Shown: piece by piece, positions 19,311 through 54,200 of the stretch
Position numbering within the stretch: position 1 is the stretch's first letter
Layout: every line of letters begins with the position of its first letter
Origin: Minisyncoccota bacterium
GTDB taxonomy: Bacteria > Patescibacteriota > Minisyncoccia > Phycocordibacterales > VMEP01
Assembly: GCA_041661305.1 (NCBI GenBank)
Contig: JBAZUR010000001.1
Span: 313,986 to 377,985 of the forward strand
Length of the DNA: 64,000 nucleotides
Direction: 5' to 3'
Translations under genes and position numbers: made by a program
Notes under the pieces: generated by a model
The model's database searches: none
The model's input: only the letters and a program-made list of their open reading frames with translations
Told to the model about the DNA's origin: nothing

Positions 19311-21092
19311 TTATTTTGCATACCTATTCCCCCTTTTTTTAGCTCCTAGTAATGGTAGTGTTACATAAAAAGTAGTACCGCTATCTCCTACCCCTAAAGA
19401 TTTAAACCAAATCTTTCCTCCAGAATTTTCAACAATAGATTTTGCAATATAAAGACCGAGCCCTGTTCCATCAGTATCCTTATTTCTAACATTATCTGCC
19501 CTAAACAACTTGGTGAATATCTTGTCTTGTTGATTCTTTGGAATGCCATAACCTGTGTCGAGAATTTTTAAAAGAATATTTCCTTTCCCTGACCAAGAAA
19601 GAGACATTGCAATTTTTCCTCCATCTGGTGTGTACTTCACAGCGTTTGATAAAATATTTTGCACCACCATTCGCAAATGCTTTGGATCTGCCTGTATAAC
19701 TCCGACATTCTTCTCTGAAGAGAAAGAGAATGATATTTTTTTTATATTAATCTGTGGTTTTTGTTCATCTATGACACTTTGAGCAAGTTTACTTATATCT
19801 ACTGATTCTGGTTCGACGATAAACGTACCGAGTTCCAAAGAAGAAACGTCTAAGAGTGCATTTACCAACTCAACCATGCGTTGATTACTTTTATAAACCT
19901 CATCAAGATATTTTTTTTGTTTATCATTTAATTCTCCTACGTCACCCGCCAAAAGCATTTCAGCATACCAATTAACAGTAGATAACGGCGTGCGAAGCTG
20001 GTGACTAGCAAGAGAGACGAACTCCGTCTTAGCTTTATCTATTTCTCTCTCAGATGTTATGTCCCTAAAAATTTTAATTGCGCCTATCACCTTTCCTTTG
20101 AGAATAACGGGGGTCGCCATAACAGACATGGGAAATTTTGTTTTATCCTTTCTCCTATAATAATAAGTGGAAACGGAGGTAGTTGTGTTATCGTCCAAAA
20201 TTGTTTTTGCCTGATATTGCTCTAAAAAAACAAGAAATCCTTTTTCGTTCTCAAGGAGAATAGTATCGGAAAAAATTTTTCCAATAGTCTCCTCTCTCTT
20301 TTTGCCAAACAGCTTTTCGGCTGTTTTGTTCATTATTATAATAATTCCCTTCTCGTCGGTAACAAGAAGACCGTCACCAATTGACAGTAATATTGCTTCC
20401 TCTTTCACTCTAGCCATTTCTAAATCTTTAGTACGCTCGAGAACTTTATGTTCTAGTGTTTCGTGTGATTTTTTAAGCTTTTTAGCAATCACCGCGAGTT
20501 TACGTCTAGCGTCTTCTTTTTCCTTTGCTGTTACGGCGAGTTTACGTCTAACGCTTTCCCTCTCCTCAGCTGTTGCAGCAAGTTTAGTGGCTGTTACCAA
20601 AAGATTACGGCGAACGTCTTCTTTCTCTTCGGCGGTCACTGCGAGTTTACGGCGAACGTCTTCTTTCTCTTCGGCGGTCACTGCGAGCTTCCCTGCTGTT
20701 ATTGCTAACTTCGCCGCAGTTACTACTAGTTTTGCGGCTGTAACTTCTAGTTTTCTTCGAACAACCTCTTTTTCTTTTGCTGTTGCAGCGAGTTCTTTTG
20801 CTGTGACAGCTAATTTTTCTGCTGTTATTTCTAGTTTGCGCCGAACAACCTCTTTTTCCTTTGCTGTTGCAGCGAGTTTTTCTGCTGTTGCAGCGAGTTC
20901 TTTTGCTGTTATCTCTAGTTTACGTCGAACAATTTCCCTCTCCCTAGCTGTTGTGGCAAGTTTCTTGGCCGTCTCGGCGAGCTCCTTTGCCGTTATCTCC
21001 AGTTTACGTCGAACAACCTCTTTTTCCTTGGCTAGAACCTTAAGGTTTCGAATTATTTCATTGGATACTGAGGTTATAACTTTTTTTTTCAT
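19311..21092 (-). CDS. sensor histidine kinase (cytoplasmic), N-terminal repeat-rich coiled coil plus PAS, HisKA and HATPase_c
   Basis: About 200 aa of tandem KEKEVVRRKLEITAKELAATA-type repeats. PAS (ILLSIGDGLLVTDEKGIIIIMN). H-box VSLASHQLRTPLSTV. N and G boxes (QNILSNAVKYTPDGG, DTGYGI...GTGLGLYIAKSIVE). No TM segment. Confidence 0.8.
   Translation of the reverse strand: MKKKVITSVSNEIIRNLKVLAKEKEVVRRKLEITAKELAETAKKLATTAREREIVRRKLEITAKELAATAEKLAATAKEKEVVRRKLEITAEKLAVTAKELAATAKEKEVVRRKLEVTAAKLVVTAAKLAITAGKLAVTAEEKEDVRRKLAVTAEEKEDVRRNLLVTATKLAATAEERESVRRKLAVTAKEKEDARRKLAVIAKKLKKSHETLEHKVLERTKDLEMARVKEEAILLSIGDGLLVTDEKGIIIIMNKTAEKLFGKKREETIGKIFSDTILLENEKGFLVFLEQYQAKTILDDNTTTSVSTYYYRRKDKTKFPMSVMATPVILKGKVIGAIKIFRDITSEREIDKAKTEFVSLASHQLRTPLSTVNWYAEMLLAGDVGELNDKQKKYLDEVYKSNQRMVELVNALLDVSSLELGTFIVEPESVDISKLAQSVIDEQKPQINIKKISFSFSSEKNVGVIQADPKHLRMVVQNILSNAVKYTPDGGKIAMSLSWSGKGNILLKILDTGYGIPKNQQDKIFTKLFRADNVRNKDTDGTGLGLYIAKSIVENSGGKIWFKSLGVGDSGTTFYVTLPLLGAKKRGNRYAK
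20440..21060 (-). repeat. degenerate tandem coding repeat array in the HK gene, including a perfect 42-nt x2 duplication (20606-20689)
   Basis: ttacggcgaacgtcttctttctcttcggcggtcactgcgagt repeats exactly at 20606 and 20648. Surrounding units run at 80-90% identity. Confidence 0.7.
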
Positions 21093-34438: not shown

Positions 34439-34810
34439 TTAGGCTTTAGGTGTTAGCTTATTAATACTAGAGATTAAACCATTCAACATTTTCATAACTT
34501 CATTGAGTAACTGCTCTACATCAGAATAATCTAGATTGGATGTTTTAGGAAGTTTCTTAGCCAGCTCAACTTGAGTTTCTAGTTCCCCACCAGAACCAAA
34601 AGCAATCAATAAAAAATGTCTAAATTCTTTACTACCGCCCCTAAGTTTTCCTTCAGCAATATTTGAAGGGATAGACACGACTGCCCGCCTCATTTGCGAA
34701 GTAAGCCCGTAAATCTCCTCTTTAGGAAAATTCTCCGTTAAACAGTACACCTTTACAGCCAAGTCCATCGCCTTGCTCCAAACTAATAAATCCTTGTACG
34801 TTTTACTCAT
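34439..34810 (-). CDS. four-helix-bundle protein (TIGR02436 / 23S rRNA-intervening-sequence protein family, Avd-like)
   Basis: DLLVWSKAMDLAVKVYCLTENFPKEEIYGLTSQMRRAVVSIPSNIAEG matches the family signature. Confidence 0.7.
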   Translation of the reverse strand: MSKTYKDLLVWSKAMDLAVKVYCLTENFPKEEIYGLTSQMRRAVVSIPSNIAEGKLRGGSKEFRHFLLIAFGSGGELETQVELAKKLPKTSNLDYSDVEQLLNEVMKMLNGLISSINKLTPKA

Positions 34811-35343: not shown

Positions 35344-35691
35344 TTAATTTTTATCAGAACTGCTAAAAATTTTAGAAAAAATAAGCAATAATTCGTGGGA
35401 TTCTTTCCAAAGATTCTTACACTCATTAATCTTATCACTATTAGCTTTAGATATCATTCTAATCCAATATTTTGTCTCGTTAGCTTCTTTCCTGCAAATA
35501 CCCACCTTATTCCTAAAATCTTTTTTGGAACTTGCTTGATTTGCTTCCATGTAGTTGGCACCAATACTTGTAGCAGACCTAACAATCTGGTTAACAAATA
35601 TCTTGTTTACTTCATTCTTTGTTAAAGAATTAACGAAATCTATAATTTTTTCTCCAAATTTCGCAGTTCTCTCCTCAAGATCGTAATTCAT
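35344..35691 (-). CDS. four-helix-bundle protein (TIGR02436 / 23S-IVS protein family, Avd-like), second copy
   Basis: YDLEERTAKFGEKIIDF ... VNQIVRSATSIGANYMEANQASSKKDFRNKVGICRKEANETKYWIRM matches the family signature. Confidence 0.7.
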   Translation of the reverse strand: MNYDLEERTAKFGEKIIDFVNSLTKNEVNKIFVNQIVRSATSIGANYMEANQASSKKDFRNKVGICRKEANETKYWIRMISKANSDKINECKNLWKESHELLLIFSKIFSSSDKN

Positions 35692-35740: not shown

Positions 35741-36784
35741 TTATACTATGTATGACGCCGCTTTAATTACGTGCTCAATAAGTGTTTTGGTATATCCCAT
35801 CTCGTTGTCATACCAAGCAAGAACCTTCACTAAATTTCCATCAACAACTTTAGTAAACGACAAATCAGCAATTGATGCGCGGGTATCGCCAATAATGTCA
35901 GCGGAAACAAGTGGCTCTTCTGTTATTGCGAAAATTCCTTTCCATCTCAACTCTTGCGCACCCTTTTTTAGTACTTCGTTTACCTCTTCAACAGTTGTCT
36001 CTCGTTTTGAGATAAAAGTAATATCAACTAAAGAACCCGCAACCACAGGGACTCTGATAGCAATACCATCAAATTTTCCACTTAAACCTTTAATCGCTTT
36101 TGTCACCGCAACAGCCGCGCCGGTCGTTGAAGGAATAATATTTTGCGCGCCAGCGCGACCACGACGAAAATCTTTTACATCTGGTAAATCAACAATACTT
36201 TGTGTTGCCGTGTAAGCATGCACTGTGTTTAAAACTGCTTTTTCTATTCCGATTGCATCATCTAAAATTTGCATAACCGGACCACCGGCGTTTGTGGTGC
36301 ATGAAGCATTTGAACTTACTTTGCAGGTTGATAACTCAACTTCGTTTACCCCCATAAGTACCGTTGCTCCATTTGGACCATTCTCTTCGCCATCTTTTGC
36401 TGGAGCAGAAATAACAACGCGCTTCGCGCCAGCATCAATATGCATTTTCGCTTTATCAAAGCTTTCAAATACTCCAGTTGATTCAACAACAACATCTATA
36501 TTTAAATTTCCCCACGGAAGTTTGGCTGGTTCACGCTCTGCGAGTAATAGAATTTCTTTGCTTCCAATCTTTAAATATTTCTCACTTCCTTTTTCTACGA
36601 TTTCAATCAATGTTCGCCCGCGACCATAAACAGTATCGTAACGCAAAAGATATGCGAGATTTTCCGCATCCCCTAAATCATTTATCGCAACAATAGTCAT
36701 CCGCGAGTCATTAAGTGCCAACTTCAAAAAGGCTCGCCCAATTCTCCCAAAACCATTTATCGCTACTCGTACATTTTTATCCAT
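35741..36784 (-). CDS. gap: glyceraldehyde-3-phosphate dehydrogenase, type I
   Basis: VAINGFGRIGR. Catalytic SNASCTTN. 347 aa. Confidence 0.9.
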   Translation of the reverse strand: MDKNVRVAINGFGRIGRAFLKLALNDSRMTIVAINDLGDAENLAYLLRYDTVYGRGRTLIEIVEKGSEKYLKIGSKEILLLAEREPAKLPWGNLNIDVVVESTGVFESFDKAKMHIDAGAKRVVISAPAKDGEENGPNGATVLMGVNEVELSTCKVSSNASCTTNAGGPVMQILDDAIGIEKAVLNTVHAYTATQSIVDLPDVKDFRRGRAGAQNIIPSTTGAAVAVTKAIKGLSGKFDGIAIRVPVVAGSLVDITFISKRETTVEEVNEVLKKGAQELRWKGIFAITEEPLVSADIIGDTRASIADLSFTKVVDGNLVKVLAWYDNEMGYTKTLIEHVIKAASYIV

Positions 36785-36794
36785 ATTGTTCTAT

Positions 36795-36802
36795 ATTATA
36801 CA
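36795..36802 (-). promoter_or_regulatory. extended -10 element (TGTATAAT) immediately upstream of gap; implies a leaderless or very short-leader transcript
   Basis: Minus-strand TTTTGTATAATATAGAACAATATG, with the -10 only about 10 nt from the ATG. Confidence 0.3.
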
Positions 36803-36895
36803 AAATTGCACACAAAATAAGAAGCAAATAAGGTGAATTTACTAGGTTTAATTTTACCTAAACAATATTCCATTTAATCTGTTATTTTTATTTAC

Positions 36896-36947
36896 CCCAT
36901 ACGTACACTATAATCTTGCTATAGCAAGATTATAGTGTACGTATGGG
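36896..36947. promoter_or_regulatory. perfect 52-nt palindrome (candidate operator; contains divergent TATAAT boxes)
   Basis: CCCATACGTACACTATAATCTTGCTATAGCAAGATTATAGTGTACGTATGGG is its own reverse complement. Lies between the PaaX-like gene 3' end and the gap operon start. Confidence 0.6.
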
Positions 36948-37010
36948 TCTGTATTTAATTTATTTAACTTACTCAATTATCATTGACTACTTATCTGATT
37001 AACTAAAAAG

Positions 37011-37589
37011 TTAGCTTAATCCAAATTTTTCTTTCAAACTTTCGTCTTGTTCAATCTTGTCTACTATCATATAGAGCACTTCCCTACCTATCTTAAAATC
37101 GGCTTTCATTAAAACTATTAAATCTTCACAATCATACGGATACACCCAAACACTATCTTGAAGTTTAGTGAATCCAAAACCAATCAAAGTAAGTCGTAGT
37201 TTTTCACGTAAGGATTTTTTATTTTCTTTTAGATCGTAAATTATTACGCGCCATTTGCCATCCCATCGCTTTGGTTTAACAATCAAACCTTTGTCGTATT
37301 GTTTGTATAAATGATGTTCCCCTGCTGGTGTTAAACAAACAAAAGTTCCTCTATCTGTTTTTTCAAAACGAACCAAACCGCCCTTAATTAGACTGTCTAT
37401 TGTTCTATTAACACGGTAATTTGTATTCTTTTTAATAACACCTAATTTATAGAGAGTGCCAACCGCGTTTGGTGCAAGTAAGGCCACACTTAATAACCCA
37501 GCACCTTTTATTGTATTTAAGACAATTTTTTGTATATTTTCTTTGCGACTTCTTTTCTTTGATTTTTCTTCAAGTTTTCCCATATACAA
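37011..37589 (-). CDS. PaaX-like transcriptional regulator (N-terminal winged helix plus Cas2-like C-terminal domain)
   Basis: N-terminus AGLLSVALLAPNAVGTLYKLGV...NYRVNRTIDSLIKGGLVRFEKTDRGTFVCLTPAG resembles PaaX_N. C-terminus RVIIYDLKENKKSLREKLRLTLIGFGFTKLQDSVWVY resembles the PaaX_C/Cas2-like fold. Confidence 0.5.
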   Translation of the reverse strand: MYMGKLEEKSKKRSRKENIQKIVLNTIKGAGLLSVALLAPNAVGTLYKLGVIKKNTNYRVNRTIDSLIKGGLVRFEKTDRGTFVCLTPAGEHHLYKQYDKGLIVKPKRWDGKWRVIIYDLKENKKSLREKLRLTLIGFGFTKLQDSVWVYPYDCEDLIVLMKADFKIGREVLYMIVDKIEQDESLKEKFGLS

Positions 37590-37631
37590 CTTTCTTTTCT
37601 ATAAGTATTTAAAAATTTACAGATAAATTAT

Positions 37632-37667
37632 TACACTATAATATTGCTATAGCAAGATTATAGTGTA
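37632..37667. promoter_or_regulatory. second, shorter copy of the same palindrome (1 mismatch) upstream of the PaaX-like gene
   Basis: TACACTATAATATTGCTATAGCAAGATTATAGTGTA, 43 nt upstream of the regulator start codon. Contains TATAAT. Confidence 0.55.
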
Positions 37668-37722
37668 CGTGTAGGAAAAGAAATATTGCAACTTTCCTTT
37701 TGGAGGCTTCGCCTCCAAGTGA

Positions 37723-39807
37723 CTAACGGCCCATATTGTAGAGTTGCTTAACTTCTGTGTCAGATAACACTCTATTGTAAAGTCTATAATCATCCATTAC
37801 CCCATCAAACCACCCTGGAGAATCCATCTGACAACAATCAGCAACAAATCTACCAAGTGTAAATTTATGAGAACCACCACTTGGGCTATATCCAGTGGTT
37901 GTTGTTTTTACCAATACTCCATTTTCATATAACTTATTCACCCCAGTTACTCCATCTCTAGTAAAAGATACGAGCAACCACCTACCGGCAACTGCGGTAT
38001 TGGGAGAATCCGCAAACCCGTTTGCGTAAATGTTATAACTTAATTTACCAAGATGAAAACCTATTAATCCTGTGCTCCACCCAACACTCTCGTTCATATT
38101 ATGAATAATTGTTCCACCAACCACTCTTGGTTTTACCCACACTGAAACCGAAAATGTGGCTGAGGCTTGCCCCAAAAAAGCCATTGCTGGAGTATTTAAA
38201 TATGTACTAACACCATTAAACTTAAGTCCTTGTCCGAGCTTTCCAGTGGCAGGACTAGACGTAGTACTGAAAGAAACTAAAGTAGCGTTGTTCCCCTGCC
38301 CACTCCTGTCGTAAGCAGTGTTTGAGCCCCAACTTATATCACCTCCGTTTAAACTAAAAACATAAACCAATCCATTATTTAAAAAATTATTAGTTGAAGC
38401 ATTTACTTGAGTCGCGTTTTGTTTATATAGTTGCTGAATTTCAGTTGCCGAAAGAGCGCGGTTGTATACACGTAATTCGTCAACTAAACCGTTGAAAAAT
38501 TCACTTGTTGCTGCGTTATACGCACGAGTTCCTATTGCCCAATTATTATTAGCACAAGTTGTCGTGGTGTTTACAGAAGTACCAACAGAAACACCGTTTA
38601 CAAAACCCTCCATTCCAGACGCACTATAAACCACGGCTACGTGTTGCCATTGATTAGCGACAATTGTTCCACCTAACGCATGATCATTTGTGGAATTTCG
38701 CCCACGTAACCCTGAACCAAAAATAACTATCCCATAATTAAAGCAACTACCACTTGCCCCCTTAGAGAAGATTGTGCCTTGTCCAACAACAGTATTTGGT
38801 TTTATCCACGCACTTAATGTCACATTGCCAGCCGTGCCAACATTAGGCAAAGCCGAGCCATTACCACTAAGATAAGTAGCGCCATTTAAGTTGACAGCCT
38901 TACCATTCTTACCCGCTACCCAAACCAAACTACTGGACGTTGTTGCCGCAGTATTTCCACTTCCACTCATATCATTTGCTTTAGAACCAGCGCCGTCGTT
39001 AAAAGGCCAATAACCAACCAATCCACTATTGCTTACAACTTTTGTTTGGGCCGAGCCAAATTGATAAAGAGTTTTTATTTCTGATGCAGATAAGGCTCGA
39101 CTGTAAATTCTGACGTCATCAATAGAGCCGTTAAAATATCTTGACAAGCCTGCGTCTTTCCCAATGTTAAGCTCATTAGTATCAGTGGTATTAATAATTC
39201 CACCGGGAACAGCGGTATTACACTGAGTACCGTTAATGTATGCTGTTAAATTTGTGCCATTCCATGTAAGTGTGTACAAATTCCAGTTAGTTATTGGAAC
39301 TGAGGGTGTGCAGGTTACTGCCACCCAGCCAGTAGTGTATATATAAAAATTAACAGAGGTAAGATTTTGAGCCGGATGTATTATGTACACATTTCTTTTA
39401 CTTACAATAAAACCATAATCATTCCAAGTACCAGTGGCGCTTTTTGCCCATGCGGATACTGTTAAATTAATCGGATTTAGCGAGCTACTGTTGGCAACCC
39501 TTATATATGAACTGGAACCGTTAAAACTGAGGGCTTTACCGATTTTACCAGACGTCCATAATGGAGTACTCATAAACGTTCCCGTATTTCCATTCCCACT
39601 CATATCGTTAGCTTTTGTTCCAGCTCCATCATTAAGTGGCCAGTACCCGACAAGGCCACTATTACCTACAGATTTAACAGTTGCTGCAGAAGTGATAGAA
39701 AAATAAAAAGAAAAAAATAAAAACGCAAACACAAAAAATATCCCCTTTTTGGAGGTTGAGCCTCCAAAATTACAGTTTTTGTTTTTTTGTATGGAAAGAT
39801 TTTTCAT
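37723..39807 (-). CDS. secreted multi-domain LamG (Laminin_G_3 / concanavalin-like lectin) protein, paralog 1 (694 aa)
   Basis: N-terminal NFGGSTSKK motif plus TM/signal. Repeated units GLVGYWPLNDGAGTKANDMSGNGNT...SAW...DDVRIYSRALSASEI. Ends QLYNMGR. Confidence 0.75.
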   Translation of the reverse strand: MKNLSIQKNKNCNFGGSTSKKGIFFVFAFLFFSFYFSITSAATVKSVGNSGLVGYWPLNDGAGTKANDMSGNGNTGTFMSTPLWTSGKIGKALSFNGSSSYIRVANSSSLNPINLTVSAWAKSATGTWNDYGFIVSKRNVYIIHPAQNLTSVNFYIYTTGWVAVTCTPSVPITNWNLYTLTWNGTNLTAYINGTQCNTAVPGGIINTTDTNELNIGKDAGLSRYFNGSIDDVRIYSRALSASEIKTLYQFGSAQTKVVSNSGLVGYWPFNDGAGSKANDMSGSGNTAATTSSSLVWVAGKNGKAVNLNGATYLSGNGSALPNVGTAGNVTLSAWIKPNTVVGQGTIFSKGASGSCFNYGIVIFGSGLRGRNSTNDHALGGTIVANQWQHVAVVYSASGMEGFVNGVSVGTSVNTTTTCANNNWAIGTRAYNAATSEFFNGLVDELRVYNRALSATEIQQLYKQNATQVNASTNNFLNNGLVYVFSLNGGDISWGSNTAYDRSGQGNNATLVSFSTTSSPATGKLGQGLKFNGVSTYLNTPAMAFLGQASATFSVSVWVKPRVVGGTIIHNMNESVGWSTGLIGFHLGKLSYNIYANGFADSPNTAVAGRWLLVSFTRDGVTGVNKLYENGVLVKTTTTGYSPSGGSHKFTLGRFVADCCQMDSPGWFDGVMDDYRLYNRVLSDTEVKQLYNMGR

Positions 39808-39815
39808 AAAATTTT

Positions 39816-41906
39816 CTAACGGCCCATGTTGTAGAGCTGTTTAAGTTCTGTTGCCGACAGCGCACGATTGTAAATTCGAACATCGTCAATTAAGCCAGAA
39901 AAATAATCTGGAAGATCCCACCTTTTGCCAATATTAATACCCGTACCGCTTGACTGTGGTGTTATCGGAGCATAAACAGATGTGGTGCTCGCGCCGTTTA
40001 TGTATAGGGTTAATATATTGTTATCAAAAGTAATAGAAACGTGAGTCCACTTATTTATTGGCAGTGTTGATGCTCCTGTCTGATACCATCCGGCATTATA
40101 TATACCTCCATAGACATTAGTTGTACCTGAGGTAAATGCAATTACGTAATTTACATAACTAGGATATTGGTCAGAAACAACGGCTGAATAACCTGTTTGA
40201 TTCCCACTTGGGTTTACCCACGCCGCCACTGTAAATTTCGGAAGACTTATTGGAGCTGTTGTAATATATTGACCATTTCCATTGAACTTCATCCCTTGCC
40301 CAATTTTTCCAATAACAGGAGATGATGTGGTGCTCATACCAACTAAAGTCCCATCATTTCCATTTCCGCTTCTATCAAGAGCCTTGTTGGTTCTCCAATT
40401 CATATCCTTACCATCAAAAGACCACAACCCTACAAGCCCGCGAGTAAGCACATTATTTCTAGACGCATTTAAAATACTCTGACCGCCAGATTTATATAAA
40501 TCTAAAATTTCAGAGACAGCTAAAGCACGGTTATAAATACGAAAATCATCCAACTTCCCAGCAAACGGGTATTGCACTCCACCACGCATCCCCATATAAA
40601 AAGCGTCATTACCAAAATTATTCGTATTATTGTTGTTGTGTACTGCGTATGTTGCCGGCGTTTGTAAAACTCCGTCTATATAAAAACTAACTTCGTTGGT
40701 TGCCTTACTTTTATCTAAAATCGCGACATAATGATGCCAAACCCCAGCCGACGGGCGATTGTAGTATGGAATTGAATAGCCAACATTTCCCCTTAACCCA
40801 ACTGCAAAGTATCCAGTATTATCATCTGGTCCAATAACCCACCCCGTGGTACTAACATTAAAATTTGGACTAGTTTCAGCGACAATACTAATACTATTAT
40901 GGAACGAACTTTTATACATCCACCAAGAAACCGAGACAACATTTGTTCCACTTGAGTCGATTGATGGAACACTTACATAATTATTTGTCCCATTAAAATT
41001 TAGTGCATTTCCCAATTTACCAGTCGCCCATGTGAAGCTATTTACAAGAGAACCGTTATTTTTATTTCCAGAAGAATCCCCCATTTGAGTTCCTGTTCCT
41101 TCGTTCATCGGCCAATATCCCACCAAGCCACTTTTCCCAGAAACAGCGGACTTAATTAACACAGCCCCCCCTGCTTTATATAAATCTGAAATTTCAGAGG
41201 CCGATAATGCGCGATTATAGATACGTACTTCGTCAATCACCCCTTTAAATGGGTATCCAGTAGAAGAAAAACTTCCGATTTCAATACCACCACCAGAAAT
41301 ATTTATACTTCCTGTTGCCGCACAAGTTTGTTTCAAAACCCCATCGACATACACTCTCATATTTGTTCCGTCGTATGTTGATACCGCATGATGCCATACA
41401 CCTTCAGACGGTTCTGTTGTCGCACAATCTTGCATAGCAGGATGTTCTATTCTCATCTTTAACCCGCCTTCAATAAACATCGAATAAGAGGTGTTCACTG
41501 TTGCTTTGTGAACCAGCCATTTGTTTGTACCACTGCCAACATCTTTTTTATACCAAGCAGAGAGTGTAATACTACTAGTAATATCAAAAATTGGTTTGTT
41601 GGGAACAGACACAGAACTATTTACACCGCCGAAATAAAGAGCCTTACCAAAACGTCCTTGTGTCCATGTTGCGTTCGAGACGGTTCCTGTATTTCCATTG
41701 CCTGAAATATCGCCTGTTTTAGTCCCTACACCATCATTAAAATTCCAATACCCCACCAATCCACTTTTACCAACATTTTTTATTGATGCAGAAAAAGTTA
41801 CAAGTGGCACAGATATAAAAAACAAAACCAAACACGCAACCAGAATTTTGGAGGCTTCGCCTCCAAAATTCTGGTTTATGTTTTTTTGTGTATAAGTGTT
41901 TTTCAT
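39816..41906 (-). CDS. secreted multi-domain LamG (Laminin_G_3) protein, paralog 2 (696 aa)
   Basis: Same architecture: NFGGEASKI N-terminus, three GLVGYW...RIYNRALS units, QLYNMGR end. 8-nt gap to paralog 1. Confidence 0.75.
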   Translation of the reverse strand: MKNTYTQKNINQNFGGEASKILVACLVLFFISVPLVTFSASIKNVGKSGLVGYWNFNDGVGTKTGDISGNGNTGTVSNATWTQGRFGKALYFGGVNSSVSVPNKPIFDITSSITLSAWYKKDVGSGTNKWLVHKATVNTSYSMFIEGGLKMRIEHPAMQDCATTEPSEGVWHHAVSTYDGTNMRVYVDGVLKQTCAATGSINISGGGIEIGSFSSTGYPFKGVIDEVRIYNRALSASEISDLYKAGGAVLIKSAVSGKSGLVGYWPMNEGTGTQMGDSSGNKNNGSLVNSFTWATGKLGNALNFNGTNNYVSVPSIDSSGTNVVSVSWWMYKSSFHNSISIVAETSPNFNVSTTGWVIGPDDNTGYFAVGLRGNVGYSIPYYNRPSAGVWHHYVAILDKSKATNEVSFYIDGVLQTPATYAVHNNNNTNNFGNDAFYMGMRGGVQYPFAGKLDDFRIYNRALAVSEILDLYKSGGQSILNASRNNVLTRGLVGLWSFDGKDMNWRTNKALDRSGNGNDGTLVGMSTTSSPVIGKIGQGMKFNGNGQYITTAPISLPKFTVAAWVNPSGNQTGYSAVVSDQYPSYVNYVIAFTSGTTNVYGGIYNAGWYQTGASTLPINKWTHVSITFDNNILTLYINGASTTSVYAPITPQSSGTGINIGKRWDLPDYFSGLIDDVRIYNRALSATELKQLYNMGR

Positions 41907-41914
41907 AAAATTTT

Positions 41915-44900
41915 CTAACGTCCTGAATTATACAATTGTTTTACTTCTGTCGCTGAAAGAGCCCGATTGTAATCACGAACGTCATCAATCTTCCCTTTAA
42001 ACAATCTGAAATTGTTAGCACCGCCAATACTAAAGCCCCCGCCAGAGCCCATAACGCCAGGCACGTTTGCGGTGCCGATTTGTACACCATCCAAGTACAC
42101 CCGGAGTGTAGTTTGGTCATATGTAAAGCCGAGGTGCATCCATGTATTTATTTTAATCCCCGCATTTGAGATGCTCACCCATTGTGGAGTATTAAATAAA
42201 TATCCATAGATGTTCACTGTGCCGTTACCAATCTCGAATAAGAAATTCCCAGCAATCATTGCTATCTCACACGTGTTCGGAGACGACCCAGGACACGTCC
42301 CTAGAAAATACGGGTTGACCCAAGCGAAAACGCTGGCTGAACCGTTTGCAGGAGATCCGCTGATCGAGACGTAGCTATCACCGTTTAAATTAAGCCCTTG
42401 TCCAATCTTCCCAACGACAGGAGAAGAACTAGTGCTCATCCCGACAAGTGTTCCATCATTTCCATTTCCACTCCTATCAAGTGCTTTATTGGTGCCCCAA
42501 TTCACATCTTTGCCATTAAAAGACCAAAGTCCAACAAGACCGTTTGTTAAAAAATTATTTTGAGACGTGTTTACTTGCGTTGCATTTTGTTTATACAGTT
42601 GTTGGATTTCAGCTACAGAAAGTGCACGGTTATAGATACGCAAATCATCCATTATTCCGTTAAAATAGCTACCAGAATAAAGCCCAATATTAAGTGCGTT
42701 GCCAGCCACTATTGAATTGCTTTGAGTAGAGCTGTCGTGTAATACACCATTAACGTAAATTTTAAAGTTGTTTGCCCCAGCATTTTTATCATAAGTTCCA
42801 ACAACGTGATACCACTGATTTGTGTTAAGTACACCTGAGTCCACAGTAACAATTCCTGTCGTGGCTAAAACAAGTTGAAATCTCAAAATATTGGAGCTTG
42901 GCCAAACATAAATCCCATATGAACTTTTATCCACGATTGCACGCCAAGAAGCTGTTGGGTGCCAATCGGGAGATTTTACCCAAACAGAAATAGTAATTGT
43001 GTCGCTAAGATTTAAACTTGAACTAGATCCTGCTGTTGCATAATTAGTGGACCCATTAAAATTTAGCGCCTTTCCTAATTTTCCTGTTATCCACGAAGGG
43101 CTTCCTACAAGTGTCGCGGTATTTCCATTACCAGAAATATCTCCCGCTTTAGCTCCAGCCCCATCATTGAAATTCCAGTAGCCGACGAGACCTGATTTAG
43201 GTGGTGTTTTTATTGTCGTCTTCGGTGCGATTGATTGTAGAGAAAAATATTCTGTATTTTTTGTCATACCAGTAAGCTGTGCGTCGGTCAAAGCCCTAGG
43301 CCATATTTTTACATTTTTAACATTAATACTTTGATTAGCGTCTACTGTGCCGGAATTGGCAATATAAATATAAGATGGAGAACCAGCCCAATTTAAAGTT
43401 TTAGCATTTCCGGAAACAGCATCGGCACTCTTTGCCCCATTTTTAAAAGAAGAAAATGTTGTAAGATTATTCGCCAGACGCAACGCAATTTTTGTTGGAG
43501 TATTGTATGTAATTGAAAATGGGTTTGATGCCACATCCCAAACTGTCCCAAAATCAACAAGAAGCGAGAGGTTTGTTCCGCTATATCCACCAAAATTTAT
43601 CATTGAATTGCTAGCATATGAACCAATTTGAATCGGCGACTTGCTTGGGTAAGAATCCCCATTGTTATTTTTTCTATTCATTTCTAAATAAAGAGAAAAC
43701 GCTCGTTCTCCTATATTTCCAGACGTAGGATATGCAAGTAAGTCTCCCGACCTAGCTACTGAAGCTGACGTCGTTGGAATATAAGATGATTCAAATGGAG
43801 CAGATTCAATTTGAGCACCCCATACATAAATTCCAGAAGAACCATCGCCTAAATATGCGTCGGTGCTTACGTGAGTATCATCAACAGGACCAAAAACAAC
43901 TGAAGTACTGTGAGAAGAAGGAATATCAAAACTACATCTATACCAACCATTACCAACACTTTGTATTGTTGGATTTAAATTTCCTGTCGCAGTAACAGTT
44001 GAAAGATTAAATGTTTGTTGTCCAGTATCGCCTCCGGCCCAAGACCAACCGCGTGCCTTCGTCCTACCAGCAGATTTCACATACACGGAAAAACGACGCA
44101 AAGTCCCAGCCGACGAAGCAATACTTTGCCCGCGACGATGTAGTGTTGTGTCTGCTGTTTCTACTAATTTTTCTGCCGTCATTGTTCCATTTGGCGCAAC
44201 AACATTGTCTACAGAAACTGTTAACCCTTCAGCGTTATTACTCCACGCCGCGTTATCAAACTGTTCAGAATACAAAGCTAAATTTGTTCGCGCACCTTCT
44301 GCTAAATAACCACGCAAAGTATTTGTAGAAATTTTTGCACCAGTATTAGCGGTCACAACATTAGACAAAACTGTATTTCCATTTTGTCTATCAAAATATT
44401 TCACGCCATCAACATTTGCTCCATGGTATGGCGAGGAAAGCACTCCTTTAGAAACATAATCGGACGGATTTTGGTTTGATTGCCCAGTAACATTTTCGGC
44501 TTGAGCTCCCCACACATACGCCGTGGCACCGGCACCATTAGCTACATTCTCATCAATATAGATATAAAAATAATGATTATTACCAGAAACCAGGTTCGTA
44601 GCTGTTACAGAAAAACGTTGCCACGACGTGGACAGTGTCACTTGCTGACCAATGCGGGTGGCGCCAGCGCTGGTATCATAGATAAGAAGCTTCGCGTTTG
44701 TCGCAGTTCCCCCTTTAATCCACACGCTATATGTTACTGCTGTGCCATTAACAGCACCAGCATTCTGCACAACGCGCTGTCCACCAACCCCGGATGTAGT
44801 AAATAAATCTGCGGTATTTGTTCCAATAGGAGATGTTGTTTGATTTGCGGTAACAGTGAGCGATACAGGAGTCCAGGAAGTACTAAAATCTTCCGTAGAA

Positions 44901-45190
44901 GATAGTAAATTTTCAACTCTTCTCGCTCCCTCAAAACGCACTTCCCCGCTTTTCGCTTGCCTAAACAAATTTTCCCAATCTTGCACATACGCCGTGGAAG
45001 CTCTTGAAAATACTGGATTTCCTCTACCTGTCTGAAGAATTATAGAATTCGTTAGATTAGCCTCAAAACTTGGTTGAAGAGAAGCTTGAACTGTCGCGGC
45101 AGCAGACACAGCGACGGGTGAGGTAATAAAAATTAAAAACAAAAAACAATTAGTAATTAATTTTATTTTATTTTTAAAATTTATTTTCAT
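41915..45190 (-). CDS. secreted multi-domain LamG (Laminin_G_3) protein, paralog 3 (1091 aa) with extra N-terminal beta-rich region
   Basis: Signal peptide MKINFKNKIKLITNCFLFLIFITSPVAVSAA. C-terminal two LamG units about 85% identical at the DNA level to paralog 2. QLYNSGR end. Confidence 0.75.
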   Translation of the reverse strand: MKINFKNKIKLITNCFLFLIFITSPVAVSAAATVQASLQPSFEANLTNSIILQTGRGNPVFSRASTAYVQDWENLFRQAKSGEVRFEGARRVENLLSSTEDFSTSWTPVSLTVTANQTTSPIGTNTADLFTTSGVGGQRVVQNAGAVNGTAVTYSVWIKGGTATNAKLLIYDTSAGATRIGQQVTLSTSWQRFSVTATNLVSGNNHYFYIYIDENVANGAGATAYVWGAQAENVTGQSNQNPSDYVSKGVLSSPYHGANVDGVKYFDRQNGNTVLSNVVTANTGAKISTNTLRGYLAEGARTNLALYSEQFDNAAWSNNAEGLTVSVDNVVAPNGTMTAEKLVETADTTLHRRGQSIASSAGTLRRFSVYVKSAGRTKARGWSWAGGDTGQQTFNLSTVTATGNLNPTIQSVGNGWYRCSFDIPSSHSTSVVFGPVDDTHVSTDAYLGDGSSGIYVWGAQIESAPFESSYIPTTSASVARSGDLLAYPTSGNIGERAFSLYLEMNRKNNNGDSYPSKSPIQIGSYASNSMINFGGYSGTNLSLLVDFGTVWDVASNPFSITYNTPTKIALRLANNLTTFSSFKNGAKSADAVSGNAKTLNWAGSPSYIYIANSGTVDANQSINVKNVKIWPRALTDAQLTGMTKNTEYFSLQSIAPKTTIKTPPKSGLVGYWNFNDGAGAKAGDISGNGNTATLVGSPSWITGKLGKALNFNGSTNYATAGSSSSLNLSDTITISVWVKSPDWHPTASWRAIVDKSSYGIYVWPSSNILRFQLVLATTGIVTVDSGVLNTNQWYHVVGTYDKNAGANNFKIYVNGVLHDSSTQSNSIVAGNALNIGLYSGSYFNGIMDDLRIYNRALSVAEIQQLYKQNATQVNTSQNNFLTNGLVGLWSFNGKDVNWGTNKALDRSGNGNDGTLVGMSTSSSPVVGKIGQGLNLNGDSYVSISGSPANGSASVFAWVNPYFLGTCPGSSPNTCEIAMIAGNFLFEIGNGTVNIYGYLFNTPQWVSISNAGIKINTWMHLGFTYDQTTLRVYLDGVQIGTANVPGVMGSGGGFSIGGANNFRLFKGKIDDVRDYNRALSATEVKQLYNSGR

Positions 45191-48200: not shown

Positions 48201-51200
48201 GGCGATTCCCACCGTTAGTAGCGAATGTAATTGACCCTTGTGAGCGTAGGCCAAACAGAGAACTGTCGGCGGTGCCGAATAGAGTGGCGCCATAACCAAC
48301 ATATCCTCGAGCCCCATTAGCTGTACTATCATAAAACGTAGTGTAAGCTCCTGTTGATACATTAGACTCGAAGCGAGCTGTTTCACTTGTACCAGAATAA
48401 ACGTTCAAAACTGCTGATGGTGTTGTGGTACCAATACCGACGTTGCCACCAGTTGCTATCGTTATCCCATTACCACTACTGCCGAAAGTAGTTGTCGTAA
48501 TTCTAATTTTCCCAGTTGCTGAATGAGTACCAATGTAAGCCGTACCACTGGTTCTCAAGTACATTCCTGTATCATTTCCAAAGGTGTTTACATCGCCAAC
48601 TATGAATGCAGCAGAATTAGACCCTGAGTGACTAATATGTAGAGGGCCCGCCGGATTCGCCAGCCCAATACCCACACCTCCACCGTTCGTCACAATGAAG
48701 TCTGTCTTTGTTGATGAACCAATGACAAATGCAGGGCCGGTGATACCGTTTGGATTTACAGAAAGTTGACCCCAAGGTGTTGATGTACCAACTCCAAAAT
48801 TTCCACCATTGAAATATGAGTTTCCACTATTGTTGATTAAAATATTTCCGTTTGATGAACTGATACCTCCATCATTCATATACATCGAACCGGTGCCTGT
48901 GCGGAGTGTTCCTTTCACCCACAAGTTTGAAGCGAAGGTCGAGGTGGCATTTGTACCCGTGCCGTTCACGTCGATGAAGCCAGCGAAGGTTGAGGTGGCT
49001 GTTCCGCTAACAGTGAGGTTACCTGCGTTTGATACTGAGAATAGAGTTGATGTTGCGTATGCGGATGTTGAACTTCCTATTGAGAACAGTGTTGTGTTTG
49101 TCTCTCCTGCGTTTGCGTGAATAGAAAGTTTTGCATATGGCGAGGTGGTGCCGATGCCAACCTTATCAGCATAATCAGCCAAGAAAGATTGAACTCCGTC
49201 GTTTTGCCAACCACCAGCTGTTGCGTTGACTGGAGCAATGAGGGCGCCGGTGAAGGTTGAATTATTACCGAGTGTATGGTCACCACCACATGTATTATTA
49301 ATAATAAGGCTAAAATAATCAGTTGTTCCATTAGCATCTGCAACCACACTAAGCGAAGGTACTCCCACCACATACGAACCGTTACCAAGAAGAGCTGAAC
49401 TTGTTAATCCACCTCCATTCTTTGTGATATATACAGTAACACCATTTCCCACAGTACAAGTTGCAAAGGTATCTGTTGTGAGGTTTACAGTTAAAATGTA
49501 CTTGCCTGCTACCGTCGGCGTGAACCGTTCAGTAGTGAGGTCGAAGTTATTGTTGGTGTCAAACCTCTCCGCATCAAACGTAACGGTAGTATTACCTCCT
49601 CCTGCAGTAATGACCTGACTCGTCCCATTCTTATACACACTGAACGAAGGCCCAGTCGTCGCTGTATTCATTCCTTGCCATGTTCCATTTAGATTTTTGA
49701 ATTCAAGAGTGCCGGCATTGTCACGAAGACCGTAACCACCTGTGCCTGTTGATGTGCCGAAGTTTAGATAACGGCTCGTTCCATTGAGAAGTGTGTCGCC
49801 GTAGACAGTTAATTTAGCCGATGGGGTGGTGGTGCCAAAACCAACGTTGCCAGTTGAGTCAATACGTATACGTTCTGTGCCAGAAATAGTTATTCCGATA
49901 GCATTTGCAGAAGGTCTAAAGAAACCAGTGGTGGTATCATTTCCGACCGTAAGTGTCGGAATACTAGCCGACCCTGAAATCTGAATGGTTAATTGCGTGG
50001 GGTTCACTCTAGCTACTTCGATGCCATTAGCAACTAACCCTACGGTGTTGCCTGCGACCCTCGCAATACCAGTGTTTGTTGAATCGGCAAATGCAATAGA
50101 AGGTGCCGCCGTACTTCCATCAGGTATTATTATTTGTCCACTCCCAATAGTAAGTGCTGCGGTTGGGTTACTTGTGCCAATTCCAACCTTACCCCCATTC
50201 GTCACGATAAATTTAGTAGCAGTTGACGAACCAATTACAAACGCTGGGCCAGTGATACCGTTTGGGTTTACAGAAAGTTGACCCCATGGCGTCGTTGTAC
50301 CGATGCCGAGATAACCGTTATCATCAAGCCGCATCTTCTCAGAGAGCGAGTACCCGTTCAATGTGGAGAAGGTTAATGCAGAGGTGGTGGCAGTACCGCC
50401 AGCGTTAGTGAAAATAGCGCTGATACGACCGATGTTGGTGGTAGTGGCTGAGGTGTTACCGGCGGCAAAGAGGAGGCTGGTACTGATGCCGTTGGCTCCT
50501 GGAGTGGTAGTTGCCCACCCACCGTGAGTAATGGTAAGCACATCAGCATTAGATGAGGTGTTGCTGTCGAAGGTGCCCGCATAGAGCGCCGGGGAGAGTA
50601 CGAGGGAGGTGGAGGTAGATTGCATAAACGTTCCCGAACCATTACTGAAAAGACCCCCTTGACCGAGATTCAAACCACCTCTGACATAGAGGTTGTTTCC
50701 TATATCCATATTATCCCAAACCGTAACCGATGATGACTGCAAATTCCCCGTAAGGACTGTTGGTATTTCTATACCTGCAAGATTAACTACCGTAAGACGA
50801 CTCGTACCATAAGCTGTCACGTACGCATAACGACCGGAAACATAAACTGCGGCAGCGGAAGATAAGTTTGTGCTGTCTTTTAATGAACCGACGACGAATG
50901 GGTTAGTTGGAGTTGAAATATCAACCACAGTTAGGCGGTTACTACCGCTTAGTGTAGTTACGTACGCATAGCTCCCAGAAACAAACATCGACTGGGGAGC
51001 AGATAAATTATCTGCGTCAAATACAGACCCGACAACAACAGGGGTTGATGGGTTAGAAACATCAACTATAGTAAGACGGCTTGTACCGTTTGCGCCAACA
51101 TAAACATACCTACCGGAAGCATAAACGGAGATTGCACTGCCTAAATTTACAGCATCATTTACAGACCCTACAACAATAGGGGTTGTGGGGTTAGATATAT

Positions 51201-54200
51201 CAACTACAGTTAGGCGACTACTACCAGCCGCCGCTACGTATGCGTAACGACCAGAAACAGACAGACCAATTGCAATACTTAAATTTGTGGCATCATTTAC
51301 AGACCCAATAACAACAGGATTTGTTGGGTTAGATATATCAACCACAGTTAAGCGGGCACCGCCAGACGACGTTACATATGCGTAACGACCAGATACAGAT
51401 ACGGCTCGAGGAGCGTTTAATTTAGTGTTGTCTTTTACAGACCCCACAACAACAGGGGTTGTGGGATTTGATATGTCAACCACTGCTAAACCATTATTAT
51501 CTTGTGCCCCTACATAAGCATATCGCCCAGATACAGAAATAGAACGAGGAGCGTTTAAATTAATACTGTCTTTTACAGACCCGACAACAACAGGGGTTGA
51601 TGGGTTTGTAACATCAACAACAGTAAGTCTATCTCCACTATCTGATGTAACATAAGCGTAACGGCCAGAAACAGAGAGAGCCATAGCCCCAGGGAGATTA
51701 GTAGTGTCTGCAACACTACCCTTAACTGTCATGTGAAAATCACGAATGGATCCGAATTCAATCGGCGAAGCAGCGGGACCAGATGAAGTGGCAAAACCGT
51801 TAAGAAATGACATTAATGGTCCAGTTGCAGTTGTAGAGGTTGATTGCACAATCGCAAACGCCGGTAAAGTAGAAGAAGCGGAGATAGATAGTTTTGCGTA
51901 TGGAGAAGTGGTACCAACGCCGACGTTGCCGGTGGAGAGTGTGGAGCCTGTTCCGGTGATTCCCGTACCAAATATTATGTTTCCGATGTTGAGTTGACCG
52001 GAAGCGGTGGCTGATGGAAGTGAAATGTTATTACCGATAAGTATGTTTTGGCTACCAGTGGTGAGGTTTGCAATTGCAGTGGAGGAAGTTGCTGTTCCTA
52101 TCCAAATATTATTGGAACCAGTGGTGACACCATAACCAGACTGATAGCCGAGGAAGGTGTTGTAGTCGGAGTTGTTGCCAGCAGAGTAGCCAGACTGGTA
52201 GCCGACATAGGTGCCTCCTTGGTTGTAGTAAGAAGAAGGACCTCGAGCTGCGGAATAACCAACTGCAGTGGAGGAAGTGGCTGAGGTATTGTTGAAGAGA
52301 GCGTTCATGCCATTTGCTGTATTGTTGGTGCCGGTGATGTTGTTGTAGAGGGCTTGCGTGCCATTTGCGGTGTTTTGATAACCTGTGGTGTTTAAATAGA
52401 GTGCCTGTACTCCGCTTGCGACATTGTTATAACCGGTGGTGTTAAAATAGAGAGAATTAACACCACTAGCGGTGTTGTTATAACCAGTAGTATTCGCTAC
52501 AAGAGCTGCTGTACCACTTACGGTGTTGTAATAACCAGTAGTGTTAGCTAAAAGAGAATTCATGCCGATTGCAGTGTTGTAATAGCCAGTGGTGTTGGCT
52601 GTAAGTGCTTTTCCACCGACTGCAGTATTGTTAACACCGGTGGTGTTGGCGTAAAGAGCTTGATAACCATTTGCGGTGTTGTAATAACCTACTGTATTTG
52701 CTGTAAGGGCGTTATACCCAACAGCTGTATTATATTGTGCCGTAGAAATTGTCGGTGTCGTTGCGAGAGCGCCTTGACCAACGGCGACAGAATACCAAGG
52801 TGTTGATGATGCGCTCATCCATCCTGCGGCACTTGATGCTCCGACGGCGAGGGCATTGTTGGTGGTGCTTGCATAAAGGACGGTATTTCCATCTTGCTTG
52901 TATCCGCCGAACTGATCGGTGTTGATGAACCCAGCGACGTCTAGTTTGTATGATGGAGTTGCGTCGCCGATGCCAATATTTCCTGTTGAAAGAGTCGAGC
53001 CTGTGCCGTTGAGATTAACACCATAAATTAAATTTCCAATATTGAGCTGATTTGAAGCTGTTGCTGATGCGACTGCGACATCATTACCGATAGAAATGTT
53101 GTTTGAACCTGTGGTGACTTGGTTGTATGAAGCGGAGATAGTTGAGTTACCAAGGAAGACATTCCTTGCACCAGTGGTGACACCGTAGCCGGAGTTATAA
53201 CCGACGAATGTGTTGTAGTCGGAGCCAGTGGCGGCGCTAAAGCCAGCTGAATAACCAAGATACACGCCACCTTGATTTGAGTAGGAAGCGTTGCCTTCTG
53301 CGGCCGAATATCCAATCGCTATGGAGGAGGTAGCGGAAGCGTTGTTGTGGAGAGCACTGCGACCGATGGCGATGTTAGTATTACCGGTGGTATTGGAGTA
53401 GAGGGCATTCGCACCAATAGCGGTGTTGGAGGCGCCGGTGGTGTTGGAGTAGAGAGCATTCAAGCCATTAGCTGTGTTGGAGGAACCGGTGGTGTTGAAG
53501 TAGAGGGTGCTCATACCGTTAGCAGTGTTGAAAGAGCCGGTGGTGTTGGAGTAAAGGGCATCCACACCGATGGCGGTGTTTTTCTTGCTGGTAGTGTTAG
53601 AAGTAAGGGCGTTATACCCAACAGCTGTATTGTATTGTGCTGTGGCATTAGTAGGTGTCGTTGCAAGGGCGCCTTGACCAACGGCGACAGAATACCAAGG
53701 TGTTGATGATGCGCTCATCCATGAAGATGCTGAGGATGCGCCGACAGCTAATGAAGTATTAGTCGTGCTTGCGTACAATACTGTGTTCCCATCTTGCTTG
53801 TATCCAGAATATTTATCGGTATTGATAAAGCCTGCGACATCAAGTTTGTATGAAGGAGAGGTTGTGCCAACTCCAACATTTCCAGTTGGAGTAATTTTTA
53901 ATCTTTCAGTACCAGCACCAGATGTTCCTGTATAAAAAGACATTCCTCCTGTTGCTGACCCTGAAGACTGTAGATAAAGTTCTCCGGCGTTTAATCCTAT
54001 TGTTGACTTATAACCACCGTTATCCCAAAGCATTAACTTCTCGCCAGCGCCAACAACGCTAGGCGCAGCTGGGGCGGCATATCCAGAATTATTAAAAGTA
54101 ATTAAGGTGCCAGGACTTGCGGCAGCTCCTGTGTTTGCTCCAAGTTTTATATTTCCTAATACATCTAACGCAACGCTTGGATTACTTGTTCCAATTCCAA

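Follow-up and report, generated by a model that had tools for sequence, protein, structure and literature searches.

A truncated PaaX relative between two long palindromes in a Patescibacteria genome: a predicted autorepressor in an accessory operator-gene-operator cassette

In a 64,000-nucleotide stretch of contig JBAZUR010000001.1 (assembly GCA_041661305.1, a Minisyncoccota bacterium), hereafter called the window, a gene for a 190-amino-acid protein (37011..37583, minus strand) lies between two copies of a long palindrome. The copy downstream of the gene (D; 36896..36947, strandless, dyad between 36921/36922) is a perfect 52-nucleotide palindrome, with 26-nucleotide arms of 100% complementarity and zero spacer. 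The upstream copy (U; 37631..37675, minus strand, core 37632-37667, dyad between 37649/37650) overlaps the gene's likely promoter. The genes gap, rpiB, rpe and a split tkt follow on the same strand, 3' of the regulator gene. An earlier note on this DNA had described a PaaX-like regulator, with a winged helix-turn-helix and a Cas2-like part, and had proposed that it controls both its own gene and the central-carbon operon. We describe here the protein, which we call "mini-PaaX", its family, its palindromes and the bearing of these on that proposal.

The 34-nucleotide core of the palindrome, ACACTATAATCTTGCTATAGCAAGATTATAGTGT, is present twice in the 64 kb, at 36905-36938 with no mismatch and at 37633-37666 with one, and 100 dinucleotide shuffles of the window yielded no match to it. 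When every position of the window was scanned as a dyad of 20 + 20 nucleotides, D scored 20/20 and U 17/20, with all other positions at 15 or below, i.e., at the level of shuffles. The likeness between U and D runs past the core on one side, to about 37675 (ACGTGTAGG versus ACGTATGGG). The two scans bear out the perfect 52-nucleotide palindrome and the 36-nucleotide, one-mismatch copy of its core that the earlier note had reported on either side of the gene. Its further observation of TATAAT in each arm is likewise seen in the sequence, and its distances of 43 nucleotides from the short copy to the regulator and about 110 nucleotides from the long copy to gap agree with our measurements, 43 nucleotides to the mechanical TTG start at 37589 and 111 nucleotides to the gap ATG at 36784. 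We have placed the start of the mini-PaaX gene at ATG 37583, 48 nucleotides from the short copy, because of the family alignment (MGKLE...) and the existence of an identical 190-amino-acid database protein, P0001.

The protein comprises a basic N-terminal helix and a predicted winged helix (residues ~1-100), followed by a Cas2-like PaaX_M domain with an alpha/beta extension (residues ~105-190). The Pfam family PF20803 (PaaX_M) matches residues 107-182 with 67.2 bits (cut-off 24, E=1.4e-18). In Pfam, PF07848 (PaaX N-terminal) was unmatched at E<=1, as was PF08223, the C-terminal effector domain of PaaX; the protein ends at residue 190. The match to the PaaX equivalog TIGR02277 is weak and partial (36.4 bits versus a cut-off of 264.55). 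Among the models proposed earlier as a check on the assignment, the Cas2 model gave a match just above its cut-off, and the two PaaX models, PF07848 and PF08223, gave none. A profile of 32 family members aligned with the E. coli PaaX of structure 8a39 at E=4e-4, over residues 58-147 of the family and 56-142 of PaaX, a span that contains the recognition helix, the wing, the WDGKW motif, beta-1 and alpha-1. Structure prediction, the other check that had been suggested, gave a PaaX/Cas2-like fold: a helix-helix-helix-beta-hairpin followed by a ferredoxin-like beta-alpha-beta-beta-alpha-beta unit, in two AlphaFold models with overall predicted local distance difference test (pLDDT) values of 67 and 73 and about 90 for the C-terminal domain. 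The best PDB match in a Foldseek search was PaaX 8a39, followed by winged helices of the MarR/PadR/F93 type and by Cas2/VapD. The PF20803 match, the profile alignment and this top fold match uphold the assignment to a PaaX-like regulator. The protein is a truncated relative of PaaX, with a predicted winged helix and a Cas2-like PaaX_M domain and without the C-terminal ligand domain; it is not a PaaX orthologue, and not the Cas2 of a CRISPR system either. No paa genes are near the window gene, whose neighbours are a Laminin_G_3 gene and gap/rpiB/rpe/tkt.

Many members of the family are named "CRISPR-associated endonuclease Cas2" at NCBI and "DNA-binding transcriptional regulator PaaX" at JGI. 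The NCBI name arises because TIGR01573 (cas2) matches about 40 residues at just over its cut-off; in the window protein the match has 27.9 bits (cut-off 24.5) and is confined to residues 114-151. PADLOC also returned partial matches to Cas2 models and nothing else (E=2e-6), and Cas2 structures are among the fold matches. These results speak for a CRISPR-associated Cas2. However, they account for about 40 residues of a 190-residue winged-helix protein to which PF20803 is a far better match, and the protein is not a stand-alone domain of about 90-100 amino acids matched by a full-length Cas2 model. CRISPR-like arrays are absent from the window and from 118 related loci, and Cas1 is not among the neighbour families listed (25 of 45 and 25 of 111), in which single occurrences could be hidden. 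We give a role as CRISPR-associated Cas2 practically no chance of being correct, and the name is a misannotation. It likely inflates the counts of orphan Cas2 in genomes of the candidate phyla radiation (CPR); what is annotated as "orphan Cas2" in many Patescibacteria genomes is a regulator of the PaaX type, with consequences for CRISPR surveys of the CPR.

The family is large, with 1628 clusters at 90% identity and, at E<=1e-30, 532 clusters at 50% identity; nearly all of the top 150 representatives have 185-200 amino acids. For comparison we fetched 80 homologous genome loci, all of them from metagenome-assembled genomes of Patescibacteria, a few with discordant automated organism labels. 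At least seven genomes hold two or more paralogues, and the window's genome probably holds P0001 together with a 66%-identical paralogue, P0005. Relatives were not found in viral contigs. Of the two halves of the protein, the winged-helix one diverges much the faster, with a mean p-distance of 0.60 versus 0.37 for the Cas2-like one. The searchable literature yielded no account of the family. To our knowledge almost nothing is known of the control of transcription in CPR/Patescibacteria, and the family adds a large set of DNA-binding proteins, found so far in this phylum only, whose predicted cognate sites can be read from each locus.

The palindromes are a trait of the family. In the 80 loci, long palindromes number 22 in the 100 nucleotides upstream of the gene and 26 in the 100 nucleotides after its stop codon, compared with about one per 100-nucleotide bin elsewhere, where most are GC-rich terminators. 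A segment of about 36 nucleotides is common to the upstream and downstream intergenic regions in almost every locus; in 58 loci the relation of U to D can be demonstrated, and the second copy is retained, 10-100 nucleotides past the stop codon, in nearly all members. The sequence of the arms varies from locus to locus, and also between paralogues of one genome, with a constant architecture. The dyad is conserved as GCTA|TAGC (as in the window), GCGR|YCGC or CGA|TCG, with an almost invariant G at +3. At any one locus, positions 3-4 and 11-18 are shared by the four half-sites, and positions 5-10 vary among them. The outer box, at positions 11-18, has one and the same sequence in all half-sites of a locus and differs from one locus to another.

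The outer box covaries with the recognition helix. With divergence of the Cas2-like domain controlled, the distances between outer boxes and between recognition helices were correlated (partial Mantel r=0.32, p=3e-4), and the reverse control with the Cas2-like domain gave no such signal (r=0.04, p=0.31). Boxes ending in ...ACGTA, for example, occur with an SSSASK helix, and those ending in ...GTGTA with helices of the xRxRDRL type. This covariation, together with the architecture, is as expected of a dimeric repressor that reads two distant half-sites, which would also explain why the palindrome is so long. The operator of PaaX has the same kind of geometry, TGATTC-N27-GAATCA, and PaaX represses its own gene through steric hindrance at its promoter (PMC9493321). 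The mini-PaaX sites show the features of a PaaX-type operator as far as sequence can reveal them: a dyad of 36-52 bp, conserved outer boxes at positions 11-18, and overlap with a predicted -10 box and start. If each protein reads its own box, the family would hold dozens of apparently orthogonal protein-operator pairs, candidates for use as synthetic parts.

The upstream copy stands in a fixed relation to the start codon in much of the family. The distance from dyad to ATG is exactly 17 nucleotides in 33 of 74 loci, and the hexamer at -12 to -7, counted from the A of the start codon, follows the consensus TATAAT (T29 A29 T19 A24 A22 T27 of 35). A -10 box normally stands at this distance from the start of transcription, and these genes are therefore predicted to be leaderless. 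In such canonical loci the gene's ATG-GGN (Met-Gly) makes up the palindrome's outer edge (GTGTATGGG, with CCCATACAC as its mirror image). A good -10 box (TAnnnT) occurs in the gene-proximal half of U in 20 of 27 loci, and in each of the other three half-sites in 6-9 of 27. The pattern TATAAT, six nucleotides, A of ATG is comparative evidence for leaderless promoters in Patescibacteria.

The window gene belongs to the leadered minority, its dyad lying 66 nucleotides from the ATG. The single mismatch in U, an A at 37643 on the plus strand where the long copy has C, changes GATTAT to TATTAT in the gene-proximal half-site and so makes a -10-like hexamer (37638..37643, minus strand). The same difference (GCAATATTAT in U, GCAAGATTAT in D) is seen at L109, in a cassette with a 69%-identical protein. 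The autoregulatory position assigned to the short copy in the earlier note is supported, and its case strengthened, by the spacing in the family, by the covariation of box and helix, by the -10 box in the gene-proximal half of U and by the retention of TATTAT at L109.

The mechanism that we propose begins with a mini-PaaX dimer on the 36-52-bp palindromic operator. The Cas2-like dimer would lie across the GC-rich dyad, which is conserved and reads GCTA|TAGC in the window; to either side of it, each of the two winged helices would read an 8-bp outer box (positions 11-18) whose sequence is specific to the locus. U would overlap the gene's own -10 box and transcription start and, in the roughly half of the family predicted to have a leaderless mRNA, would reach to the start codon at its edge. 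Bound protein would then occlude RNA polymerase and shut off the gene, as PaaX does at its own promoter. The architecture of the sites, its conservation through the family, the covariation and the presence or absence of the cassette are observed in the sequences. Binding, repression and the geometry of the dimer are predictions here, drawn from the sites and from the analogy with PaaX; autorepression through occlusion at U is well supported on that footing. Taken as a whole, the best explanation of the locus, and in our judgement a probable one, is that of a mini-PaaX autorepressor with long palindromic operators, carried in an accessory operator-gene-operator cassette whose place beside gap is incidental.

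Several observations weigh against this explanation. The exact promoter of the leadered window gene is ambiguous: an alternative sigma-70 reading, with TTGCTA at the dyad, 17 nucleotides and AATAAT at 37632-37627, did not score above shuffles in a promoter scan. The N-terminal domain has low confidence in the model (pLDDT 50-70) and no Pfam match. The Cas2-like half keeps the beta-1 Asp of Cas2 (D117), absent in PaaX, and has a group of E, S, Y, C, K and D residues that do not vary. Such strong conservation looks like more than that of a dimerization scaffold and suggests a ligand pocket or a catalytic site. At 59 positions U and D differ and yet each copy is symmetric, where by rough estimate one or two such compensated positions would arise from independent changes, and a model in which one protein reads four half-sites does not predict this; uncompensated differences between arms are still commoner, at 187. 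The second copy lacks an evident reason under this model. Helical phasing between U and D, examined as a sign of DNA looping, gave no signal at any period of 9.5-12 bp. Finally, an autorepressor that controls itself alone brings no obvious benefit to the cell.

The symmetry of the copies could also be caused by their acting mainly as nucleic-acid hairpins, i.e., terminators, insulators or stabilizers of mRNA ends, with the protein as an incidental neighbour. The long copy folds as a single strand at -26.7 kcal/mol (z=-14) and the short copy at -10.3 kcal/mol (z=-6), the long copy is terminator-like on the plus strand, the copies of one lineage have A5/T5-6 flanks between convergent genes in the manner of bidirectional terminators, and arm changes within copies are in part compensated. 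However, a T-run on the gene strand (at least six T in the next ten nucleotides) follows only 3 of 63 downstream copies, and the differences between arms at positions 5-10 are more often uncompensated (104) than compensated (23). The outer boxes covary specifically with the recognition helix. In leaderless loci U would not be transcribed as a hairpin, because the start lies at +18. Matches to Rfam were sub-threshold and to generic hairpins only, with no family matched. We consider it highly unlikely that the palindromes serve mainly in this way. D was rejected as an intrinsic terminator, since the long copy has no T-run after it on the minus (gene) strand, in line with the 3 of 63 across the family, and as an outward promoter, since its -10 boxes are of no higher quality than those in the mirror half-sites. 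The downstream copy is best described as a second predicted binding site that is generally neither promoter nor intrinsic terminator, and it may act in looping, as a roadblock or in insulation.

The earlier note had the long copy control the gap operon, so that the regulator would act on itself through the short copy and on gap-rpiB-rpe-tkt through the long one. The long copy does lie between the regulator and gap, with both genes on the same strand. The arms of D terminate in ...TATAGT-GTACGT-ATG-GGG, the mirror of the leaderless start of canonical family members, so that the arm facing gap has the family's leaderless-promoter geometry of TATAGT, six nucleotides and ATG. Transcription from the autoregulated promoter might also read through into gap, because no minus-strand U-tract terminator lies between the two genes. 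However, the ATG of that arm is directly followed by GGG TAA, and downstream copies in the family generally have no -10 box. The region upstream of gap (36785..36835, minus strand), which is outside the cassette, holds TGTATAAT at 36802-36795, and protein bound at D would not occlude this element because the palindrome ends about 90 nucleotides upstream of it (by eye).

The neighbourhoods of the homologues point the same way. Of 76 homologues, 39 have a downstream neighbour in the same direction and 37 a convergent one, as expected of a random orientation. These neighbours encode unrelated housekeeping functions with no recurring theme (among them M16 peptidase, NUDIX, ThyA, RNase H, ribosomal proteins L3 and S8, phosphoketolase, GyrB, LepA, topoisomerase I, tRNA synthetases, PGK and ParB); neither gap nor any pathway has a conserved link to the gene. 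The closest homologue from another species, P0004 (69% identical), is encoded between NUDIX and an unknown gene. Two sister genomes, L115 and L113, have a GAPDH 88-89% identical to that of the window and a colinear gap-rpiB-rpe-tktN-tktC-pfkB-fba-L25 operon at about 72-82% nucleotide identity, and in one of them a Laminin_G_3 gene is directly upstream of gap. Their spacers before gap, of 88 and 123 nucleotides, contain neither the mini-PaaX gene nor a palindrome. About 50 nucleotides 5' of gap are similar by eye in the window and the two sister genomes, where BLAST aligned only the last 7-14 nucleotides, to 36791-36798. Control of both the gene itself and the operon in this genome thus seems unlikely to us, and regulation of gap-rpiB-rpe-tkt by mini-PaaX is not supported, the position beside gap being apparently incidental. 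The attractive model of central-carbon regulation in this genome is thereby corrected, and the cassette is better seen as one of hundreds of such self-contained units than as a dedicated switch for a sugar-metabolism operon.

The operator-gene-operator unit behaves as an accessory cassette that, judging from the comparison of loci, is gained and lost among the housekeeping genes of Paceibacteria. In two related genomes it occupies different sites, A-[cassette]-B-C at L049 and A-B-[cassette]-C at L070, and the corresponding empty sites are contiguous and without a palindrome. The filled sites of this pair are flanked by a direct duplication of 30-40 nucleotides of the target, which is the upstream gene's stop codon or terminator region. 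In 12 of 62 loci the flanking duplications exceed the 99th percentile of a cross-locus null, and six of these are long (21-69 nucleotides); the window cassette has no flanking target duplication. The ends of the insertions lie 25-440 nucleotides beyond the palindromes. Some lineages keep the cassette at one syntenic site (e.g., the L005/L015/L019/L036 group). Past the downstream palindrome, the insertion at L049 (3620-4056) also holds an extra convergent open reading frame, of about 75-80 amino acids by eye, that has a Shine-Dalgarno sequence of its own.

Palindromes of the same architecture also occur alone. A metagenome scan with a 20-nucleotide core returned 28 stretches, for the most part palindromes with other arms. 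Ten of the 28 adjoin a homologue, and those that do not include true solo palindromes of the family architecture, at few sites per lineage. The solo copies, of 36-52 nucleotides (L082, L095, L085 and L090/L103), lie between convergent genes or between two canonical terminators, places that call for no promoter, and that of L090/L103 has the 34-nucleotide core of the window. A search of six-frame translations with the hidden Markov model of the family revealed no degraded regulator gene within 1.5 kb of them. They could be relics of recombination between U and D, or extra binding sites. The copies at L082, L095, L088 and L106 have a palindromic core in common with the pair that flanks the homologue in L081 and L108.

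As an alternative to regulation, the earlier note had suggested that the palindromes are the terminal repeats of a small cassette resembling a miniature inverted-repeat transposable element (MITE). The cassette part of this suggestion stands, in that the unit is a discrete insertion, present or absent between relatives (lacking in L115 and L113, at different sites in L049 and L070). The likeness to a MITE, with the palindromes as termini, does not, because the copies are very few, the unit is protein-coding and the ends of the insertion are outside the palindromes. The many dispersed, near-identical copies that would speak for a MITE are not seen, with only two copies in 64 kb, and in place of exact terminal repeats with a short duplication there are diverged duplications of 21-69 nucleotides at some loci only.

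A self-mobilizing element is a related possibility, in which the protein, with its winged helix-turn-helix and Cas2-like parts, would use the palindromes as ends or recombination sites and might cut at the dyad. The presence, absence and different insertion sites in related genomes could be explained in this way, as could the unusually long duplications (the 12 of 62 loci given above), insertion directly after stop codons or terminators, solo palindromes between convergent genes with no gene remnant nearby, the symmetry of arms that is held even where copies differ, and the retention of the Cas2 beta-1 Asp among dense invariant polar residues. However, the protein shows no fold of a transposase or recombinase and none of the HUH, DDE, serine-recombinase or tyrosine-recombinase motifs, and we know of no case in which Cas2 integrates DNA without Cas1. 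The insertion boundaries are outside the palindromes, the empty sites lack them, the copy number is very low (two in 64 kb), some lineages have a single syntenic site, and no members were found in viral contigs. No recombinase is found among the neighbour families common to at least two loci. An unrelated 208-amino-acid gene shows the same type of duplication, so that long duplications may be a general signature of gene gain and not an activity of the protein; single-crossover integration of a circle with flanking DNA may be a general route. We regard self-mobilization as quite improbable. The same low standing applies to a selfish cassette in which the Cas2-like domain would catalyze, at the dyad, homogenization of the arms, excision that leaves solo palindromes, or insertion with long duplications; if true, this would be a case of Cas2-fold chemistry acting without Cas1.

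The 208-amino-acid gene, of no known function, has inserted into the 3' end of a short-chain dehydrogenase/reductase (SDR) gene (L106 5100-5900 versus L082 1300-1400), with a direct target duplication of about 40 nucleotides (ATACCCTTTGGTGATAGAA...ATCCACGAT), beside a solo palindrome. It was ruled out as a palindrome-bounded cassette of its own, as the palindromes do not bound it.

Among known systems, PaaX with its long operator is the closest to the autorepressor that we propose. The two proteins share a homologous Cas2-like central domain and, by profile alignment and fold prediction, probably the winged helix; PaaX has a long operator with distant half-sites, and so does mini-PaaX by prediction, with 8-bp boxes about 20 bp apart. 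Occlusion of the own promoter, established for PaaX, is predicted for mini-PaaX. In contrast to PaaX, mini-PaaX has about 190 amino acids rather than about 310, without the PaaX_C effector domain or a PF07848 match, and it has the beta-1 Asp. It also has two operator copies that flank the gene, often with a leaderless promoter inside the operator, and it occurs as multi-paralogue expansions confined so far to one phylum, with no paa genes nearby.

The C-terminal half resembles Cas2 and VapD in fold, in the beta-1 motif (I/V)(I/F)(Y/F)D(L/I) and in the strand motif LQxSVW. Unlike these proteins, mini-PaaX has it fused to a predicted DNA-binding domain and has no partner antitoxin, CRISPR array or, among the families listed, Cas1. 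The C proteins of restriction-modification systems and antitoxin-type autoregulators are also small dimeric DNA-binding proteins with a palindrome over their own promoter in an accessory cassette, properties that mini-PaaX would share, and transcripts of C.PvuII are leaderless. These regulators differ in their unrelated fold, a helix-turn-helix of Xre type, their shorter, upstream-only operators and their regulation of a partner gene (nuclease or toxin), whereas mini-PaaX has no conserved partner. Repetitive extragenic palindromic (REP) sequences and their REP-associated tyrosine transposases (RAYT) likewise present a single gene between two copies of a palindromic repeat and solo copies in 3' intergenic regions. 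However, mini-PaaX lacks the HUH/Y1 fold, its Pfam, NCBIfam and fold matches being to PaaX, Cas2 and winged helices only, and its palindromes are few per genome (REP sequences number tens to hundreds), specific to each paralogue, and overlap the promoter and start codon.

The housekeeping operon beside the cassette holds other small genes. Two genes of the PF05635 family (23S_rRNA_IVP, bAvd-like four-helix bundles) lie on the minus strand at 35344-35691, between gap and rpiB, and at 34439-34810, between rpiB and rpe. Both are missing from the colinear operons of L115 and L113, and we regard them for this reason as further small accessory insertions. Small accessory cassettes of these two kinds, mini-PaaX and the 23S-IVP four-helix-bundle genes, thus come and go inside the housekeeping operons of streamlined genomes.

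Independent metagenome assemblies of the window cassette (L110, L096, L111 and L112) break at or near the palindromes; one such contig ends 93 nucleotides past the gene, and three are only about 1.8 kb long. This suggests that the long palindromes disrupt assembly. The imperfect tandem repeats of the window, at 20494-21033, 51152-51675 and 52367-53580 (periods of 42/84, 138 and 51/102 nucleotides, 2-4 copies each), presumably fall in coding sequence, and none of them is CRISPR-like.

At the upstream edge of the intergenic region of U, just past the stop codon of the upstream Laminin_G_3 gene, is a GC-rich hairpin, TTGGAGGC-TTCG-GCCTCCAA (37700..37718, minus strand), which a consensus terminator scan did not call a terminator. 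Beyond it, 37723-45190 (minus strand) encodes three tandem Laminin_G_3 (concanavalin-like) paralogues of 694, 696 and 1091 amino acids. Each has a signal-like N-terminal segment, and the C-terminal motif ...RIYNRALSxxExxQLYxxGR is common to all three. The sister genome L115 has fewer copies of this gene.

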